Shown in pieces: positions 2,025-31,922 of a stretch of 64,000 nt of DNA. Source of the DNA: an uncultured bacterium (GTDB lineage: Bacteria > Desulfobacterota_D > UBA1144 > Nemesobacterales > UBA2774); the NCBI GenBank assembly GCA_963825135.1, contig CAWGRW010000009.1, positions 2,080,001 to 2,144,000 on the forward strand, written 5' to 3'. Below the pieces are notes generated by a model. The model made no database searches and was not told where the DNA came from. It worked only from the letters and a program-made list of their open reading frames with translations. How positions within the stretch are numbered: position 1 is the stretch's first letter; each line of letters starts with the position of its first letter. A program made the position numbers and the translations under genes.

Positions 2025-2192
2025 GTTTTCAGGAAGAAGAAGTGGTATGCTATTTTACTAAATGGTCGTTTCAAACCGGCGCATCTTTTCTAAGCTATCT
2101 ATACAGAAGTCTTTTTAGTGAACGATATATGTATTCCTGTAATTGTTTTGATACACCGGGGCGTAAGGAATCCAAATAGGGGGTTTAGACAT

Positions 2193-4364
2193 ATGAGCGA
2201 TAATAGGCAATTAGAAGAAACTCACAATAGAGCGGAGATCGTATTCTCACAAAACCTCCCGGATTTACGCTCGAACGGAAATGACTATTATAAGGATCTC
2301 GAGATACTGAATCATCTCGCTCAGGGCACTGCTTCGGTCGTGGGCTCCAATTTCTTTAACTCGCTCGTTCATCACCTGGCATCGGCGATGAAGGTTCGTT
2401 ACGCGTTCATAGCCCAGTGCACGGACGACACGTTCACCAGGGTAAGGACTCTATCCTTCTGGGTGGATAACCATTTCGGCGAGAACATAGAATTCGAGCT
2501 TAAAGGCACTCCTTGCGAAAATGTTATCGCCGGAAACGTAAGCGTGTATCCCGACAGGCTCCAGTCGCTGTTCCCGGAGGATACGGGCCTGGTCGATATG
2601 AGCGCTCAGAGCTATCTCGGAATACCGATAAGGGACGCATGGGAAAATGTTCTGGGTCACATTGCCGTAATAGACGATAAGCCGATGGGTCATGAGCCCT
2701 TGGGTATAAACGTGCTGCAGATTTTCGCGGCCCGCGCGGGCGCCGAAATAGAGCGCAAGCGCGCCGAGGATTCCCTCAGGGAAAACTATATGGTGCTTGC
2801 GAAGAAGAACCGTTACGAAACCATAATAGGCAACGTCACGCGGATGGTGCATCAGTCCCTGAAGCCCGAAGAGGTTTTCGAGAACGCAGTCGATGCGCTC
2901 AGCAAGAATATAGAAAAGGTGAACTGCGCGGGAATATATTTGATAGAGGGGGATGAGGCCGTACTCAAGGCGCAAAGAGGGTACCCGGTAAAGTATCTGG
3001 AGTTCACGAGCCGGATCGTGCGTCCGAAAGGGTTTACTTGGGAGACCATAACGAAAGGGGAGCCGAATTATTGCCCCGATCTGGATACGGTGGCCGCGGC
3101 GAGCGTCGCTAGAAGGGCGGGGGTTAAAAGTTTTCTCTGTGTTCCCATCAGGAGCAGAGGGGGGGTTATTGGAACTCTGGATATAACTTCCTTCCATAAG
3201 AATGCTTTTGATGAGGACGAGCTAAAGCTCCTGGAAATCGTATCGAGGCAGATAGAGACGGCGGTGAACAATGCGAGACAAACAGCCGAGCTTAGGGAGT
3301 CTCAGCTGTCGCTGCAGATGGCGCTGGCAGAGGTCGAGGAGCTTAAAAACAGGCTTCAGATTGAAAACGTCTATCTGCGTGAAGAAATAAATACGGAGAA
3401 TAATTTCGAGGAGATCGTAGGCAGGTGCGATGAGATCAAGCGTGTTCTGGTCAGTGTCGGGCAGGTAGCGCGAACCGGGACGACAGTGTTGATTCATGGA
3501 GAGACAGGGACCGGAAAGGAGCTCGTCGCGCGCGCGATACATAACCTGAGTGACAGAAAGCACAGGACCCTCGTAAAGGTCAATTGCGGGGCTATATCGG
3601 CGGGGCTCGTGGAGAGCGAGCTCTTCGGCCACGAGAAAGGGGCGTTTACGGGTGCGCTGCAAAAGAGGGTCGGCAGGTTCGAGCTTGCTGACGGCGGTAC
3701 GATATTTCTGGATGAAGTGGGGGAGCTTCCTCCCGATGTGCAGGTGAAGCTGCTCAGGGTACTCCAGGAAGGCGAATTCGAAAGGGTAGGGAGCAGCGAA
3801 ACGATTAAGGTCGACGTAAGGGTTATAGCGGCCACAAACAGGGACCTCGAAGAAGCGGTAAGGGATAAATCATTCAGGTCCGACCTTTATTACAGGCTCA
3901 ACATCTTCCCTATATACGTACCTCCGCTTCGCGAGCGGAAACCGGACATCCCGCTGCTCGCTAATTTCTTCCTGACTAAATTTTCGAAAAAACTTGGCAA
4001 GGATTTTACCGGATTCTCCAATGGCACTCTGGACAGACTTCTCGATTACCACTGGCCGGGAAACATCAGGGAGCTCCAAAATATTGTGGAAAGGGCGGTC
4101 GTGATATCAAATTCACCCGTGATCGATATAGATGACTCGGTGCTCGGCAACGCGAATGGTTCATCCGCAAGCGCGGCCGAAGATAATAAGTCCCTCGAGG
4201 ATGTGGAACGTAATCATATAATCAGCGTGCTGGAGGAGTCAGGCTGGGTTATTGACGGCAAGAGGGGGGCTGCTACGGTGCTCAATATCAACCCCAATAC
4301 GCTCAGGTCTCGGATGAAAAAACTGGGCATAACCAAGCCCGAGCGTATGAACCGCGGCCTGTGA
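2193..4364 (+). CDS. Sigma54-dependent activator (GAF-GAF-AAA+-HTH, FhlA/NifA-like)
   Basis: Walker A GETGTGKE, intact GAFTGA, Walker B IFLDE, WPGNIREL, C-terminal HTH NPNTLRSRMKKLGI and two N-terminal GAF domains. Start placed at M26 of the listed ORF. Confidence 0.95.
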   Translation: MSDNRQLEETHNRAEIVFSQNLPDLRSNGNDYYKDLEILNHLAQGTASVVGSNFFNSLVHHLASAMKVRYAFIAQCTDDTFTRVRTLSFWVDNHFGENIEFELKGTPCENVIAGNVSVYPDRLQSLFPEDTGLVDMSAQSYLGIPIRDAWENVLGHIAVIDDKPMGHEPLGINVLQIFAARAGAEIERKRAEDSLRENYMVLAKKNRYETIIGNVTRMVHQSLKPEEVFENAVDALSKNIEKVNCAGIYLIEGDEAVLKAQRGYPVKYLEFTSRIVRPKGFTWETITKGEPNYCPDLDTVAAASVARRAGVKSFLCVPIRSRGGVIGTLDITSFHKNAFDEDELKLLEIVSRQIETAVNNARQTAELRESQLSLQMALAEVEELKNRLQIENVYLREEINTENNFEEIVGRCDEIKRVLVSVGQVARTGTTVLIHGETGTGKELVARAIHNLSDRKHRTLVKVNCGAISAGLVESELFGHEKGAFTGALQKRVGRFELADGGTIFLDEVGELPPDVQVKLLRVLQEGEFERVGSSETIKVDVRVIAATNRDLEEAVRDKSFRSDLYYRLNIFPIYVPPLRERKPDIPLLANFFLTKFSKKLGKDFTGFSNGTLDRLLDYHWPGNIRELQNIVERAVVISNSPVIDIDDSVLGNANGSSASAAEDNKSLEDVERNHIISVLEESGWVIDGKRGAATVLNINPNTLRSRMKKLGITKPERMNRGL

Positions 4365-24762: not shown

Positions 24763-24986
24763 GACCCGGCTTGCTCGCAAGAAACGTTTAAAGATTACCC
24801 AAGCCGAAGAAAGATTCGAAATTAAGCCGGATTTTTGTAAATATCCCGGGAAGATAATTTTAATGATAAATATTAATAAAGTTCCTGATATTCGCCCGTA
24901 CCCGAGCTGAAAGTTCAATTGAGCTGTATATTTTGCCTATGGCAACGGTCGGAAACACGCCTCAAAACCGATTGAAGGAGGAAGTG

Positions 24987-25673
24987 ATGAGCACTCGTAT
25001 CTTTCTTATAATTATATATTTAGTTTTTGTAATATTAGTCTCGGCATCTATAGACTCGCGAGCCGATGTGCTTTGCGCCAACGAAAGAAGCGGAGTCGTC
25101 AGAATCCGCCCTGAGGAATGCGAGCCTGATGAGACTGTAGTGGATTTGAGCGGAATTGCGCAGTCCCCCGCGGTCAAGCCGCCCCGGTGGAGATGGCTGG
25201 GCGAGGGCGAGGGGACCTACTGGTACGTACCAAAAGCAAACCTGCCCGCCGTAGAATGGGATACATCCGATCCCGAGAGCTATTCGCCCGTAATTGACCA
25301 GACGGTATGGCATATCGATCATTACGCGAACGGATATTTCTCAGGAACCGTAGTCGCGCAGATAGGGGTGCATCCGCCGCAGTGTCAGTACCTGATTGGG
25401 TCCGTAACTCCGAACGGCACGGTCTATATCACCTTCAATTCTCTTGCTGCTGTGCCTGTGGGCTCGCCTGCGTTGACGACTGGGGTGGGGACAATGGTGC
25501 TTAAGGGAAACGACTGGACATTCAACATGCAGATGGCCTCGGGTCAAGCCTCTAGCCAGATCACACACTGGGCTTACATGCTCGAGTGCACGCCGGATGA
25601 GAAGTGCTGGACGGACCTGCCCGGGATACAGACGAGCCTGCCTGATTTTGTCGCCGAATGCGGTACCCAATAG
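24987..25673 (+). CDS. Hypothetical secreted protein
   Basis: AGGAGG RBS before MSTRIF, signal peptide and several paired Cys. Confidence 0.65.
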   Translation: MSTRIFLIIIYLVFVILVSASIDSRADVLCANERSGVVRIRPEECEPDETVVDLSGIAQSPAVKPPRWRWLGEGEGTYWYVPKANLPAVEWDTSDPESYSPVIDQTVWHIDHYANGYFSGTVVAQIGVHPPQCQYLIGSVTPNGTVYITFNSLAAVPVGSPALTTGVGTMVLKGNDWTFNMQMASGQASSQITHWAYMLECTPDEKCWTDLPGIQTSLPDFVAECGTQ

Positions 25674-25914
25674 CCTCGCTGGGGACCACAATAGGCAAAG
25701 CCCAATAACGATTTGTAAAATACGGGCGGGAGCCGGTCCACGCTCGCATTCTGCATCGGAGATTGCCTGCCGGGCCCGGGCTTGGCGACGCTATCGGGCT
25801 TCTATGTAAATATTACATTAAGGGGAGTGTATAACCTTAACAACTTTCCCGTAATGACTTATACTAACTTTTGGTCTCAGGTTATGATGATATGAGCCTT
25901 TACCCCGAATCGTA

Positions 25915-28587
25915 ATGAATAAAGTCGATAAAAAGAAACCCGGGAAAACAAATAAGTCCGTAATTGATTCCGGAAACCATCTGTTGGCGGTTCTCGATAC
26001 GGTGGGGGAAGGGATTGTGACGATCGATTCCGAGGGCACGGTTATCATGGTCAACAGAGAATTCGAAAATATCTGGGGTTATCAGCGCGACGAGATAATC
26101 GGAGTCAACCTGACGATTCTCATGCCGGAGAAATACAGGGGCGCTCACAAAGCCGGTATGAAGCGCTACCTCTCGACAAGAGAGGCTGTCGTTCTCGGCC
26201 GCAGGCTTGAGCTCGAGGGTCTCAGAAAAGACGGGTCCGTCTTCCCTCTCGAAATCCGCATAACCGAAACGGAGATAAACCGTGACGTCTATTTTACCGC
26301 GGCGGTTCGGGACCTTACCGATCTTAAAAAAGCGGCCAAGCTCCTGCACGACGAAGCGCAGCTAAGGAGGCAGAACGAAGTTCTTCTGGAGCTTGCAAAG
26401 AGCGAAGCGATCGAAGCGGGAGACCTCGACGCGATCCTGATAAAGATAACTGAAGCAGCGACTAGAACACTGGGAGTCGAGAGGGCTAATATATGGTTAT
26501 ACGATGAGGCGCGGACCCGGATCCATTGTATCGAGCAGTATGAGGCCGGGACCGGAAAGCACTCCGACGGAGCCGAGTTGTCAGCCTCCGACTACCCGAC
26601 GTACTTCAAGGCTCTGGAGAACGAAAGAATTATTGCCGCGCACGACGCCGCAACCGATCCAAGGACGTCGGAGTTCGACGAAACGTATCTCAAACCGTTG
26701 GGTATCACTTCCATGCTCGATGCCCCGGTAAGGCTTAAGGGGCGAATGATAGGACTGATATGCCATGAGCACATGGGGCCGCAGAGGACGTGGACCCTCG
26801 AAGAACAGAACTTCGCGGGATCTGTCGCAGACCTGCTTTCGCTCGCTCTGGAAGCGAGAGAGCGGAAAAGGGTGGAGAAATCCCTGAGAGAGAGCGAGGA
26901 AAAATTCCGCACATTAGTTGAAAATACATATGACTATATCTATGAAGCGAGCATCGACGGCAAATTCCTTTACCTGAGCTCCAAACACAAGGATGTCCTC
27001 GGTTATGATCCCCAGGAATTTATCGGCAGTGATATATTTGAGCTGATCTACCCGGAAGACCGTCCGGCGGTGATGGAGGTATTTCAAAAGATTATTAATA
27101 CCTCGACCTCGGGACACGCCGTATACAGGTACCGGCACAAGAACGGTGACTGGCTCTGGTTTGAAGCTACCGGCAGGCCATACGTAACTATGGGCGGTAA
27201 GACGCGGATACTCATCTTCAGCAGGGAAATCACGGAGAGGAAGAATGCCGAGGAAGCCCTCAAAGAGACGCTCGGCCAGCTCTCCAGGAAAAACAGATAT
27301 GAGACTATAATCAGCGCGGTTACCAGGAGCGTTCACCAATCGACGGACCTGGAAAACGTGCTTGAAAACGCCGTCCAGGCGATATTCGAGAACATAGAAA
27401 AGGCCGATAGCGTATCTATTTATTTTGTAGAAGGGGAGGAAGCCGTTCTAAAAGCGCACAGGGGTTATGTCGACTGGTATATAAAGAGGGTAGCCAGAAT
27501 CCCATATCCCCGCGGATACGCATGGAAGGTGATTATGGATGAAAATCCGAGGTATTGCCCGGATACGGAGATGGATACCGTGATAGGGCCCGCGGGAAGA
27601 GAGTTAGGAATAAAATGCTATTTGTCCCTTCCGATCCTTTATGCGGGTAAGACTATAGGTACGATAAATATTAACTCGTTCCAGAAGGGGGCGTTCGATG
27701 AGGAGGAGCTGAAACTCCTCGAGATAGTGGGTGATCAGATTTCGGTCGCGATAGGTAACGCCAGGCAGAAAGGGGCGCTCCAGGAAGCGATGTCCGAAGT
27801 TGAGCTGCTAAAAAAGCGGCTTAAGAATAATAAGCTCTTTTTGCCCGAGGAAGAAACGCGCGAGCTGCATTTCGAAGGGATCATAGGCAAATGCTCTCCG
27901 CTGCGCAAGGCGATGTTCATGGCGGAGCGGATCGCTCCCACGGATTCTGCAGTGCTGATCAAGGGCGAGCCGGGCACGGGCAAGCATTTATTCGCGGAGA
28001 CTATTCACAGGATGTCTGTGAGGGCCGAAAACCCTTTCGTGAAAATCAACCTTAAGGGCCATGAGGGAGGCCTTGCCGAGGTTCGGATGTTCGGGTTTGA
28101 AGAAAAGGGTGCCGACAGCACCGCTATTTCCCTTTCCGTAGGCAGCGTGGAGCTCGCAAATAACGGCACTGTATATATTAAAGATATCAGCGGGTTGTCC
28201 ATAAATATACAGAGAATACTATTGTCCATATTACAGGAAGGGGAGTTCGTTCGTCCCGGCAGCTCGCGTGCAATTAAAGTGAATGTCAGGGTCATTGCGG
28301 GGACGAACGGGGAACTGGAGAAGTCGGTGGAGGACGGACTATTTCTCGAAGACCTGTTTCATGAGCTCAGCGGGTCTCAGATTATACTACCGCCGTTGAA
28401 AGAGAGGTTGGAAGATATCCCACTTCTTGCCCAGCATTTCTTATTAAAGCACGGTAAAAAGCCCGGGAAGGAATTGAAATCCATATCACAGCATCTGCTG
28501 GACAATTTTGATTCTTATGATTGGACGGATAACGTCAGGCAGCTCGAAAGAATAATAAAAGACGCCGTTGCCGCATCCGGCACCTGA
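25915..28587 (+). CDS. PAS-GAF-PAS-GAF sensor with a degenerate sigma54-type AAA+ domain and no HTH
   Basis: FixL-like PAS (LMPEKYRGAH..GLRKDGSVFP); Walker A GEPGTGK kept; GAFTGA replaced by GADSTA; Walker B replaced by YIKDI; the ORF ends shortly after WTDNVRQLE. Confidence 0.88.
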   Translation: MNKVDKKKPGKTNKSVIDSGNHLLAVLDTVGEGIVTIDSEGTVIMVNREFENIWGYQRDEIIGVNLTILMPEKYRGAHKAGMKRYLSTREAVVLGRRLELEGLRKDGSVFPLEIRITETEINRDVYFTAAVRDLTDLKKAAKLLHDEAQLRRQNEVLLELAKSEAIEAGDLDAILIKITEAATRTLGVERANIWLYDEARTRIHCIEQYEAGTGKHSDGAELSASDYPTYFKALENERIIAAHDAATDPRTSEFDETYLKPLGITSMLDAPVRLKGRMIGLICHEHMGPQRTWTLEEQNFAGSVADLLSLALEARERKRVEKSLRESEEKFRTLVENTYDYIYEASIDGKFLYLSSKHKDVLGYDPQEFIGSDIFELIYPEDRPAVMEVFQKIINTSTSGHAVYRYRHKNGDWLWFEATGRPYVTMGGKTRILIFSREITERKNAEEALKETLGQLSRKNRYETIISAVTRSVHQSTDLENVLENAVQAIFENIEKADSVSIYFVEGEEAVLKAHRGYVDWYIKRVARIPYPRGYAWKVIMDENPRYCPDTEMDTVIGPAGRELGIKCYLSLPILYAGKTIGTININSFQKGAFDEEELKLLEIVGDQISVAIGNARQKGALQEAMSEVELLKKRLKNNKLFLPEEETRELHFEGIIGKCSPLRKAMFMAERIAPTDSAVLIKGEPGTGKHLFAETIHRMSVRAENPFVKINLKGHEGGLAEVRMFGFEEKGADSTAISLSVGSVELANNGTVYIKDISGLSINIQRILLSILQEGEFVRPGSSRAIKVNVRVIAGTNGELEKSVEDGLFLEDLFHELSGSQIILPPLKERLEDIPLLAQHFLLKHGKKPGKELKSISQHLLDNFDSYDWTDNVRQLERIIKDAVAASGT

Positions 28588-28605
28588 GGGCCGGGAATAG
28601 TTTAA

Positions 28606-31452
28606 ATGAAGAAAAATTATAGGAACCTGAATCAGGCGCTTCTTACAGCGCTCATGACTTATTCCGGGAGAATTTGTTACAAGTCCAAGCGGGAGGGAGA
28701 GTTCCGGGATATATCGTTCGGGGATTTTAAGAAGCTGGTCCTCCGGTTGTCGGCATATCTTCTCGGCAAGGGGTTTGAACCCGGGTCGAGAGTAATAATT
28801 TTTTCGGAAAATTCGCCGGAGTGGATGGCTGTCTGTATAGCGTCCCTGTTTTCAGGCGGGATTGTCATTCCCGTAGCCGCGAATTCCAAGCCCGAACTAT
28901 TGAACCGCATACTAAAAGATTCATCGGCGTCGCTAGTGTTCGTGCAAAACGTTTTTCAGGCGGCCGGTGTCGGGAATATGTGTGAGAACAAACCTTCTAT
29001 AATAGTTATGGAGGATATCGACGGAAGCGGGGATCGGACGATGCACCTCACTTCTATTGGTAAAGGCTCAATTACGGAGGAGGATGTCAAAGCGGTAAAG
29101 ATACGCGCCGAGAGCGTAAACCCGGAATCTACTGCCCTAATTTTCTACACCGCCAAAGAGACAGGGGTTCCGAGGGGCGTCGTGTTCTCACACGGCAGGA
29201 TGCTCGATACACTCACCCACGTTTCGGAATGGTTTGGTCTGGACGAATTCGACCTGGGGTTCACATCTACGAACTGGAGCAATTTCCAGAGTTTCGTGAT
29301 CGCCCTCGAATACATATATTCAGGCATTGGGAATGCGCTCTCCCAGAGCATAGATACCGTATTCGAGGACCTTCAGCAGACGAGTCCCACTGTCACCATG
29401 ACAAGCCCATTTGCCCTGGAGTATATTCACAGACGAATTATGCACGAGCTTGACGAGATGCCTGAGTCGAGGCGGAAAATTTTCCAGTGGGCGCTTGCAC
29501 TTGGAAGGCAATACCGCTCCGAGGAGTCCACGGCGTCAAAGGAGCTGCGTGAGCAGTATACCCGCGCAGATATGGCATTTTTCGGGAGGATGAGGGCGAT
29601 ACTGGGAGGGAGGCTCCTGCGGATTTATTGCGCGGGTGCTCATTTGTCGAGGGAGCTCGCCGGTTTCGCCGAGGCCATAGGACTGTTGCCCCTGAACGTT
29701 TATTCAATCGTTGAGGCTGGCGGCTTTCCTGCCTTGAGCCGCCCTTACGCCCGCAGGATGGGTTCCTGCGGTCAGGTCGCTCCGGGTTTCCAGATAAGAA
29801 TCTCGGACGAAGGCGAAGTCCTGGTGCGAGGAGAAACGGTTTCCGCCAGTTACTGGAACTCCCAGGAGCAATATGAGAATCTCTTTGACAGGGACGGGTG
29901 GTTCCGTACCGGAGATTTGGGGAAGTTCGACCAGGACGGGTATCTGTTCCTGACCGGTCATAAGGAGTCAATTTTCCTCCTGTCAAACGGCCATAAAATC
30001 GTACCGTCCAAAATTGAGAACTATATCGCGGACAACCCCTTCATAACGCAAGCCCTCGTATTCGGCGAAGGTAAATCCTATGTGTCTGCTTTGATCGTTC
30101 CGAATTTTCAGGTAATCGGGGAATATCTAACCGCTTATGAATCTTCACAACAAAACGGCGACATGCCTATCGATACGTTTAATCCGGCGGTTAAGGCGCT
30201 CATAGATAAAACGGTCTCGGATGTAAATAATCAGCTGAACGTGTGGGAAAAGATACAGGCGTATACGATGATCGATAAGCCATTCAGCGGGTATGGTTCG
30301 GATTCGGCGGAGCTCGAAAGGAGCGACCGGGCCGAAGTTCTAAAGAAATACTCGCTCTATATCAACGCTATGTATCCCGACACCCTCAAGATCGATAACG
30401 ACGATATAAAGCTCGTGCAGCTCGATCCCGACCAGCTTCGCGACCTTCTCGAAAAGCAGGACATTCTGACCGCATGGATGGAAGAAGCCGGCATCGGGTT
30501 TTTGCTGGATCTCGCGCGTTCCAAAGGCATTGACGCACTATCCATGGTGAACATTTGCGAGACCGCGACCAGCATCGCGCAGATGCAGAGCGAGGAAAAA
30601 CCTATATCCACCGCTCTTATCGTTGGCGATCCGACGCACATATCCAGCGTGCTGCCCGACGGGGAGATACAATTTCACCGTTTCGATCATATAAGGCGTA
30701 TGCAGCAGGTGGTTATCGCCCTGGCGAAAATAGTCGACGGTGTGGTGCTGGGTTACGGGATAGATAAATACGGGTATCTGAGGCGTGTCCATAAGCTGGA
30801 AATAGATGCGGATGGTCCGTCTAACTTTCTCCTGGGTCCGCAGTTCAGGAAGCATGCCGCGATATCGAGCAAGTGCGATGCGATTGTATTCTATGTGCCG
30901 GTAGGCGGCAGGCAGGTGCGGGTATTTTCGGACGGGCAGATGGTCGCGAGGTATTCGAACGGGAACTGGATGGCCGAGAACTTTCCGCACATCGACGAGA
31001 CCGTCGAAAGGCTTGCTCTCAAAAAGAGCTATGACGTCGAACTCCTGAGGCGAATTTTTCGTTGTGCTTTCCTGATGTCGGAGAGGAACCTGGGAGCTAT
31101 TTTCGTTGTCGGTGAGTCTGATAAAATATTGAAGAAGTCGGACCCTCCTGAAATAAGCCCTTACGCGACGATAACCAATGCTTATATAGGCAAATTGACG
31201 GACAGCGAGATAATAAATTTTGCGAAACAGGACGGGGCGACTATAATAGATTCGGCCGAAGGCGCGTTTCGGGGCTGTATGGTACTTCTACGTCCCAGCG
31301 CCGATACCCAGGCGGAGATAGGGATAGGCAAGGGCTCGAGACACTCGAGCGCGTCAAAAATGAGCGCAGAGGCGGGGTGTCTTGCAATCACTGTATCCCA
31401 GGACGGTCCGATCACCGTGTACGACAGCGGGGAGCGTATTATGACCATATAG
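28606..31452 (+). CDS. AMP-binding (acyl-CoA synthetase-like) domain fused to C-terminal diadenylate cyclase (DisA_N) domain(s)
   Basis: ANL motifs GEVLVRG, GWFRTGDLG, NGHKIVPSKIE; DAC motifs GAIFVV, KQDGA (31231), GSRHSSA (31339), ITVSQDG. Confidence 0.85.
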   Translation: MKKNYRNLNQALLTALMTYSGRICYKSKREGEFRDISFGDFKKLVLRLSAYLLGKGFEPGSRVIIFSENSPEWMAVCIASLFSGGIVIPVAANSKPELLNRILKDSSASLVFVQNVFQAAGVGNMCENKPSIIVMEDIDGSGDRTMHLTSIGKGSITEEDVKAVKIRAESVNPESTALIFYTAKETGVPRGVVFSHGRMLDTLTHVSEWFGLDEFDLGFTSTNWSNFQSFVIALEYIYSGIGNALSQSIDTVFEDLQQTSPTVTMTSPFALEYIHRRIMHELDEMPESRRKIFQWALALGRQYRSEESTASKELREQYTRADMAFFGRMRAILGGRLLRIYCAGAHLSRELAGFAEAIGLLPLNVYSIVEAGGFPALSRPYARRMGSCGQVAPGFQIRISDEGEVLVRGETVSASYWNSQEQYENLFDRDGWFRTGDLGKFDQDGYLFLTGHKESIFLLSNGHKIVPSKIENYIADNPFITQALVFGEGKSYVSALIVPNFQVIGEYLTAYESSQQNGDMPIDTFNPAVKALIDKTVSDVNNQLNVWEKIQAYTMIDKPFSGYGSDSAELERSDRAEVLKKYSLYINAMYPDTLKIDNDDIKLVQLDPDQLRDLLEKQDILTAWMEEAGIGFLLDLARSKGIDALSMVNICETATSIAQMQSEEKPISTALIVGDPTHISSVLPDGEIQFHRFDHIRRMQQVVIALAKIVDGVVLGYGIDKYGYLRRVHKLEIDADGPSNFLLGPQFRKHAAISSKCDAIVFYVPVGGRQVRVFSDGQMVARYSNGNWMAENFPHIDETVERLALKKSYDVELLRRIFRCAFLMSERNLGAIFVVGESDKILKKSDPPEISPYATITNAYIGKLTDSEIINFAKQDGATIIDSAEGAFRGCMVLLRPSADTQAEIGIGKGSRHSSASKMSAEAGCLAITVSQDGPITVYDSGERIMTI

Positions 31453-31533
31453 ATTGGACCGGCTCACTCTGATTTCTTTGAGTGAGACGGTATCCGGCGG
31501 CCAAGCAAAAAAGAGCCTGAAATATTATTAAAG

Positions 31534-31562
31534 TTGACGGCAGGATTTAAATAAGTTAAAAT
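31534..31562 (+). promoter_or_regulatory. Sigma70 promoter of the cold-shock gene
   Basis: TTGACG-N17-TAAAAT, about 100 nt upstream of the start, consistent with a long csp leader. Confidence 0.7.
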
Positions 31563-31664: not shown

Positions 31665-31874
31665 ATGGCAGAACGTAAAATTGGCACTGTAAAGTGGTTC
31701 AATTCTACAAAAGGTTTCGGTTTCATTGAGGTAGAGAACGGCGAAGACGTTTTCGTACATTACAGTGAAATTAAAGCGACCGGCTTCCGCACGTTGGAAG
31801 AAGGTCAGCGCGTAGAGTTCACCGTTGTAAAGGGACAGAAAGGTCCCCAGGCTCAGAATGTAGTACTGGCTTAA
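31665..31874 (+). CDS. Cold-shock protein (CspA family)
   Basis: GTVKWFN, KGFGFI and DVFVHY motifs; AGGAGG RBS. Confidence 0.97.
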
Positions 31875-31886
31875 CGGAAAAAATTG

Positions 31887-31922
31887 GTGAGCCGGATACC
31901 CCGGCTCACTTCTTTCCTTTTA
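31887..31922 (+). terminator. Intrinsic terminator
   Basis: GTGAGCCGG/CCGGCTCAC stem followed by a T-rich tail. Confidence 0.8.

Follow-up and report, generated by a model that had tools for sequence, protein, structure and literature searches.

A disarmed sigma54-type sensor encoded beside a predicted ANL-DAC cyclase: a conserved, apparently undescribed gene pair in an uncultured bacterium of the order Nemesobacterales

In the GlmM-CdaA and RadA-DisA systems, a diadenylate cyclase (DAC) is regulated by contact with a partner encoded in the same operon, as described in the available part of PMC8573169. A gene pair that invites comparison with these systems is located in a 64,000-nucleotide stretch of DNA, referred to here as the window, from an uncultured bacterium of the order Nemesobacterales (assembly GCA_963825135.1, contig CAWGRW010000009.1, positions 2,080,001 to 2,144,000). 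Gene 1 (25915..28587, + strand) encodes an 890-residue sensor with the domain order PAS1-GAF1-PAS2-GAF2-degenerate sigma54 AAA+ and without a helix-turn-helix (HTH), which makes it a pseudo-bacterial enhancer-binding protein (pseudo-bEBP). Gene 2 (28606..31452, + strand) encodes 948 residues comprising an ANL-like domain, a helical cap, a DAC-like copy and a DAC. The pairing is real and conserved and apparently undescribed, and it may be regarded as a variant of partner-regulated cyclic-dinucleotide signalling; co-operonic control of DACs is already known. Among the papers listed by the literature search, none described the pair or the ANL-DAC fusion; the 22-family DAC survey by Galperin 2023, to which PMC10249747 and PMC12901056 refer in their available sections, may list ANL-DAC.

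As in GlmM-CdaA and RadA-DisA, to the extent that the available text covers them, the partner lies beside the cyclase (in the same operon there), RadA is also an ATPase-fold protein encoded upstream, and control would be expected at the head-to-head DAC assembly. In contrast to both, the partner here is a disarmed bEBP with PAS and GAF domains, the cyclase carries a pseudo-ANL and two DAC folds, and the contact is a predicted one. Gene 1 resembles the FhlA/NifA-type GAF/PAS bEBPs (group 3 in the available part of PMC7175178) in its GAF-AAA core and in keeping Walker A and sensor II, whereas it lacks their GAFTGA, arginine finger and HTH and mostly their Walker B, which is lost in 17 of 23 orthologues. 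Atypical bEBPs without HTH (FlgR and CtcC; PMC7175178, in part) and without GAFTGA (Caulobacter and Rhodobacter NtrC, and VpsR; 10.1101/2023.06.06.543975, in part) are known. In these partial sources each of them misses one output and is still a transcription regulator, while the gene 1 clade misses both outputs and the arginine finger. No bEBP missing both HTH and GAFTGA was found in the literature search.

On the cyclase side, CdaG and DS-2C (DACNG-DACNH-DAC; PMC13640721 and 10.64898/2026.08.10.743927, available parts) also have a DAC-related domain before the catalytic DAC. Unlike these proteins, all 21 members of the gene 2 group that were scanned lack a Pfam hit to DACNG or DACNH, even with E values as high as 5 allowed. 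Moreover, the first DAC fold of gene 2 keeps the Asp-Gly that DACNH reportedly lacks in that text, and no CBASS or effector neighbours were seen. Asymmetric DAC products are described for PanS in the available part of 10.64898/2026.08.10.743927. PanDA and Panoptoo consist of a minimal DAC by a 2TM-beta effector, whereas gene 2 encodes a 948-residue multidomain protein whose neighbours are the sensor and a presumed cold-shock gene. An anti-phage reading was ruled out on the neighbourhood.

The pairing was surveyed in 101 genomes of the order, and a pseudo-AAA profile was run on 120 genomes of the class. A strong DAC-module match is present in 14 of the 101 genomes (11 ANL-DAC genes, 2 fusions and 1 remnant), and gene 1 lies directly 5' of gene 2 in 10 of the 11 full-length gene 2 copies, the exception being G038. 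G008, where the pair is split over contigs with the junction present, is counted as a pair. The pair loci span two families and at least three gene neighbourhoods (the host family, G066, and G044/G065), and the spacer measures 18-58 bp in nine measured loci. Among 67 metagenomic loci, 34 have a full gene 2 with a visible upstream neighbour, and 7 of these 34 are pairs, some of them redundant with the genomes. No orphan gene 1 occurs in the 120 genomes of the class: scored with the pseudo-AAA profile, no locus other than the 10 pair loci rises above 309 bits. Because those 10 loci had served to build the profile, held-out members were scored separately: all 12 held-out orthologues score 325-408 and all 17 intact paralogues at most 305, a narrow margin.

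At the syntenic site, both genes are missing in 10 of 10 relatives checked. DAC remnants persist there in three of the ten (gene 2 residues 780-948 in G001, 916-948 in G007 and 927-948 in G006), and their different left breakpoints indicate separate deletions. The initial annotation had proposed a two-gene system and named homologues that do not co-occur as the finding against it; the genes co-occur, vanish together and share a fusion. The system is not obligatory, since gene 2 is solo in G038 and in Chloroflexota. In Chloroflexota genomes, all nine gene 2 loci lack a nearby sensor, and members of the gene 1 clade are missing altogether from five of these genomes (best 175 bits; GAF1 at most 42%). 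Dependence is one-way: gene 1 was not found without gene 2, whereas gene 2 occurs alone in Chloroflexota. All pairs likely trace to a single recruitment of gene 1. The DAC tree does not resolve a single clade of paired gene 2 copies; in it, the solo copy L087 is placed as sister to a paired group.

In G062 and G069, which belong to two genera, PAS-GAF-PAS is fused to a tandem DAC with no ANL. The fusion GAF is 63-64% identical to GAF1 of gene 1 (26365..26874, + strand), a domain type that the paired sensors have in common with the two sensor-DAC fusions. Of 20 GAF1 matches in the order, the top 12 come from the 10 sensors and the 2 fusions. Sensory cassette and cyclase are kept in the fusions, the AAA, the ANL and GAF2 are dropped, and the DAC domains of the fusions are under purifying selection (dN/dS 0.12-0.16). 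G062 and G069 were also considered as pair loci and were not counted, as their best AAA matches are intact bEBPs with HTH. The architecture PAS-GAF-PAS-tandem DAC is seen at L046:6768-9131 and L047:2262-4619, where the C-terminal helix of the PAS continues straight into the DAC cap helix.

The Pfam scan of gene 1 yields PAS-GAF-PAS-GAF-Sigma54_activat-lid and no HTH. Its pseudo-AAA+ domain (27862..28584, + strand) matches PF00158 with E 2.5e-41 (clade 6 AAA+ domain) and keeps Walker A (G684-K690) and sensor II (N873/R875). On the other hand, GAFTGA has become GADSTA (732-737), K756/D757 stand in place of the DE of Walker B, E817 occupies the arginine-finger position, and the chain stops at residue 890. 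The functions of GAFTGA, Walker B and the arginine finger in bEBPs are described in the available part of PMC7175178. The orthologue set consists of 24 proteins (10 from genomes, 7 from the protein database with context not known, and 7 metagenomic, one of them partial), and 17 intact paralogues serve as the comparison set. All 24 orthologues end before the HTH position, which rules out loss of the HTH by a frameshift in this assembly, and the lack of a DNA-binding output, noted at first for the window protein, holds for the whole clade. The arginine finger position is E or Q in 24 of 24. Among the 23 readable orthologues, GAFTGA is missing in all, as opposed to its presence in 17 of 17 paralogues, and the Walker A lysine is kept in all. 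Walker B reads EE in 3 of 23 and DE in 3 of 23 and is lost in the others, which amounts to graded decay.

Of the residues that are near-invariant in the intact paralogues, the gene 1 clade keeps 46, including the cis nucleotide pocket, and has lost 52. Its own conserved residues are E729, S735, E812, E817 and Q822, and E812 and E817 occupy arginine-finger positions. In a tree with 37 other bEBPs, 36 of which carry GAFTGA-type loops, the first 17 orthologues fall on one side of a branch with support 100/98, and the clade shares a one-residue insertion in loop 1. Judged from its sequence, gene 1 is a sigma54-activator derivative that belongs to one clade whose transcriptional outputs are lost. 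The dN/dS of its AAA is 0.10-0.25 (6 pairs) versus 0.04-0.06 in 5 intact AAA pairs. Evolution of this domain is relaxed yet not neutral and is under purifying selection, and recent pseudogene decay is ruled out by these ratios.

With respect to the inputs, PAS1 (25972..26322, + strand) is FixL-like by alignment to FixL. Its His78 aligns with a FixL histidine, presumably the proximal heme ligand, and all 13 orthologues of the host family have it. The distal Arg of FixL aligns out of register to a Leu in PAS1, with basic residues one to two positions earlier. FixL-like PAS domains are limited to the host family, and the second family carries a different PAS type at that place. The O2 input considered possible at the outset rests on this FixL-like PAS and would be limited to the host family. 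PAS2 and GAF2 occupy 26890..27789 (+ strand), and the GAF2 type is common across these genomes. The sensor input domains are reshuffled between loci while the gene pair stays intact.

The ANL domain of gene 2 (28606..30375, + strand) is like the FadD/ACSL-type long-chain acyl-CoA ligases in that it is alignable over its whole length (FadD11, E 2e-52, well below the cut-off) and keeps the adenine/ribose-side motifs. In contrast to these ligases, its P-loop is degenerate, reading YTAKETG (181-187) in the window protein, and a canonical Ser/Thr/Gly-rich P-loop is found in none of 111 homologues of at least 900 residues; the FadD paralogue of the host has one. The catalytic (A10) lysine of the C-domain is not identifiable in the window protein and is variable in the family, the best column, in a poorly aligned region, containing K in 50 and R in 23 of 111. 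The ANL motifs Y..xE and TGD belong to the AMP side, and their residues are kept (Y366 in 110, E370 in 106 and D437 in all 111). The claim of a degenerate nucleotide-handling domain in each protein is therefore borne out, by the AAA of gene 1 and the ANL of gene 2, while the suggested input of lipid status is not: nothing specific to lipid was found, and the ANL keeps AMP-side residues without the phosphate loop. In total, 301 gene 2 homologues of 521-1659 residues were found, AMP-binding and DAC families are present in 117 of the 120 listed, and the named carriers of ANL-DAC include Anaerolineae. The ANL-DAC fusion is widespread.

The cyclase region of gene 2 contains two DAC folds, not one. 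DAC2 (31006..31449, + strand) is a canonical fold that matches DisA with Z 16.5 and a root-mean-square deviation (rmsd) of 2.2 over 127 aligned residues. Its D876-G-A is present in 111 of 111 homologues, and R912-H913-S914 has invariant R912 and H913, the usual RHR reading RHS in 111 of 111. DAC1 (30562..30984, + strand) is missed by Pfam. As a profile, residues 653-793 match DAC2 with E 6e-5 and a probability of 66%, and a low-confidence model of DAC1 (pLDDT 54) reaches Z 10.0 and rmsd 3.1 over 126 aligned residues, the top six of 48,161 chains all being DACs. DAC1 conserves D711 (110/111), G712 (111/111) and H750 (109/111), and the catalytic Arg position is variable. Since D711 and H750 are kept and the catalytic arginine is not, DAC1 is a likely, though not certain, catalytically dead copy. 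Searched against PDB sequences, the complete DAC module matched nothing at E up to 1, and the ESM Atlas gave for DAC1 a single lead at 0.76, below the reliable range (DACNV in 37% of members). Relatives were found at 78-93% identity over the DAC region. The host genome has five DAC-domain genes, and three of the four others score higher on Pfam than gene 2; one of the five is a DACNK-DAC (L049:4413-5591). No c-di-AMP riboswitch match was found in the host genome, which is 94% complete.

Gene 1 is kept beside gene 2, is lost jointly with it and has its domains donated by fusion, and it therefore likely signals into the enzyme and not to genes. Some functional coupling between the two genes is probable. 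The more specific proposal that gene 1 is an add-on sensor controlling the gene 2 cyclase by contact is plausible, though tentative. Under this proposal, gene 2 would be an autonomous one-component cyclase, predicted to form c-di-AMP at DAC2 upon head-to-head contact of DAC domains, and its non-catalytic ANL would bind AMP or an adenylated ligand and gate the cyclase. A neighbouring bEBP would have been recruited once in this bacterial order. It would have retained its cis nucleotide pocket, and because this pocket is kept, gene 1 probably binds ATP or ADP, apparently without canonical hydrolysis. The former ring-forming face of its AAA seems to have turned acidic. The pseudo-AAA, probably with the ANL, would hold the PAS/GAF cassette at the tandem DAC by non-covalent tethering, and ligands of the PAS and GAF domains (for the host family, heme-gas or redox) would there promote or block active DAC assembly. 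Such tethering is suggested by the fusions: where the connection has become covalent, the AAA and the ANL are exactly the parts that are gone, along with GAF2. AAA and ANL also change fastest between G000 and G017 (identity 52% and 56%, whereas the PAS/GAF domains reach 70-85% and the DAC domains 78-81%). A complex prediction restricted to the pseudo-AAA and gene 2 residues 200-948, with ANL residues 1-199 and the PAS/GAF domains outside, scored 0.14, the mark being 0.32.

Several points weigh against control by contact. Gene 2 is solo in G038, in L087 (sister to a paired clade) and in Chloroflexota, and its persistence without gene 1 indicates that the sensor is dispensable. The single origin of the pairs means that counts of kin are not independent, and one deletion removes neighbouring genes jointly whatever their function. 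The fusion could stem merely from gene adjacency, and since the tandem DAC joins many unrelated domains, any single fusion is weaker as evidence. Furthermore, selection on the gene 1 AAA is relaxed 2-5 times relative to intact AAA domains, and the long branches of its clade could inflate the clade support. Finally, no gene 2 column separates paired from solo copies beyond ancestry: 16 columns marking the paired copies were found and set aside, because most are shared with solo G038 or L087 and thus reflect ancestry and not pairing. Overall, the original interpretation is partly supported: co-occurrence and the loss of DNA-binding output hold, whereas the pairing is not obligatory, the FixL-like PAS is limited to the host family, and no specific sign of a lipid input was seen.

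Alternatively, gene 1 could be a receptor whose GAF or AAA pocket binds the c-di-AMP of gene 2 and which passes the signal to a third protein. This appears unlikely. In FleQ-type bEBPs, c-di-GMP is bound by the AAA domain, gene 1 keeps the cis nucleotide pocket with the catalytic residues lost, and the sensor is never found without the cyclase while the cyclase is found alone, all of which agree with a receptor. However, gene 1 lacks an output domain, the R883 position, which is that of the arginine in the FleQ ExxxR motif, is lost, and the fusions place PAS-GAF-PAS N-terminal to the cyclase, where the ANL stood, which is the usual input position.

It is rather unlikely that gene 1 is an anti-activator, the pseudo-AAA of which joins and caps intact sigma54 activator rings and which is merely co-regulated with the cyclase. 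Such a role leaves unexplained the fusion of GAF1 to DAC and the lack of an orphan sensor in 110 pair-free genomes of the class, 45 of which have bEBP-like matches above the cut-off, and 52 residues near-invariant in intact paralogues are lost. In its favor, the host genome has a sigma54 gene and 11 other bEBP-like AAA matches, at least 10 of them with long HTH-type tails, and gene 1 is 44% identical to the intact paralogue in the window (2118-4364). The cis pocket is intact and the trans face dead, and a mixed ring would be poisoned by the arginine-finger loss.

A bolder form of coupling, in which the sigma54 activator has turned entirely into a post-translational sensor, its dead AAA+ docks on the dead ANL through a pseudo-enzyme interface, and DAC1 (with Asp and His but without Arg) joins DAC2 in one asymmetric site whose product is a hybrid or non-canonical dinucleotide instead of c-di-AMP, is decidedly unlikely. 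If true, the tandem-DAC module, to which at least eight other input domains are fused, would be an unrecognised general signalling output.

The absence of any functional link, with gene 1 an ex-activator that has a separate role and is a passive neighbour of gene 2, is very unlikely. Although the single origin, the autonomy of gene 2 elsewhere and the joint deletion of adjacent genes would all fit, the pair stays intact despite changed flanking genes and reshuffled sensor inputs, the sensor is alone in no genome, and the fusion is retained under selection in two genera. That gene 2 is a nucleotide-binding scaffold instead of an active cyclase, so that the module does not set cyclic-dinucleotide levels, agrees with the RHS in 111 of 111 and the four other DAC genes (three higher on Pfam) but is highly improbable given the invariant catalytic Asp and first Arg, the DHH neighbours, and the activity that PanS enzymes show despite their divergent DGF and GGR motifs in the available part of 10.64898/2026.08.10.743927.

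Most c-di-AMP cyclases known so far have housekeeping roles, and few of their inputs are known. The present module suggests that c-di-AMP networks may be wirable like c-di-GMP ones, one genome having several cyclases (five in the host) and the PAS/GAF inputs being exchangeable. Gene 1 also represents an enhancer-binding protein without any transcriptional output that is yet kept by selection, and its relatives form a graded decay series. For DAC switching by a small molecule or gas, nature offers ready controls in the PAS-GAF-PAS-DAC fusion and the solo forms.

The layout of the locus fits its initial description as two co-oriented genes with an 18-bp gap followed by a hairpin, as confirmed by ORF coordinates and fold energy, and the pair is a conserved module that is probably transcribed as one unit. 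The spacer (28588..28605) is exactly 18 bp and has no terminator-like site on the + strand. A sigma70-type promoter-like site 5' of gene 1 (25837..25865, + strand) has 10 of 12 consensus matches; it is weak alone, as the scan gave 10 promoter-like sites versus 5.8 +/- 3.0 in shuffles. In G008, 25829-25867 is 90% conserved, and the rest of 25649-25929 has no other match there. The hairpin 3' of gene 2 (31463..31486, + strand) consists of a 7-bp inner stem inside a longer stem and folds with -20.1 kcal/mol (z -2.36; equally good shuffles 5/200). It lacks a U-tract and was not listed by the terminator scan, and the closest strong terminator-like site is 31886-31910.

That site follows the downstream gene (31665-31874), presumably of cold-shock type, which has its own promoter-like site at 31534-31562 and is retained by every relative that lost the gene pair. 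Just 5' of the pair lies a gene of 246 residues with no Pfam match (24933-25673), which is duplicated in G003 and broken in G006, G009 and G023. The intact paralogue at 2118-4364 has the order GAF-GAF-AAA-HTH and is divergent from a gene (828-1496) that, from the look of its sequence, resembles an extracytoplasmic function sigma factor; similar neighbours recur at other paralogue loci.

Solo ANL-DAC genes have neighbours of several kinds. A DHH-family gene adjoins them in four loci (L094:2858-4084, L115:3489-4628, L116:3044-4183 and L124:7122-8204) and is possibly the matching phosphodiesterase. A SpoIIE phosphatase gene lies directly 5' in L025, L084:2-2568 (REC-SpoIIE after a kinase) and L089, and a Ser/Thr kinase lies 5' in L103, while L124 has a gene related to it. 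In three loci (L044:7448-8053, L081:3364-3969 and L082:7152-7775), a further DAC gene that stands alone runs convergently towards the end of ANL-DAC, and two ANL-DAC genes stand in tandem in L032:6178-12043 and L098. Partner domains of the tandem DAC were scanned in 48 among 150 listed profile matches, and in proteins P0251-P0380 the N-terminal partners are zf-HC2 plus Lon_C-like, PRTase-CE, CHAT, REC, CBS, winged-helix/ArsR HTH, TPR, LRR or none.

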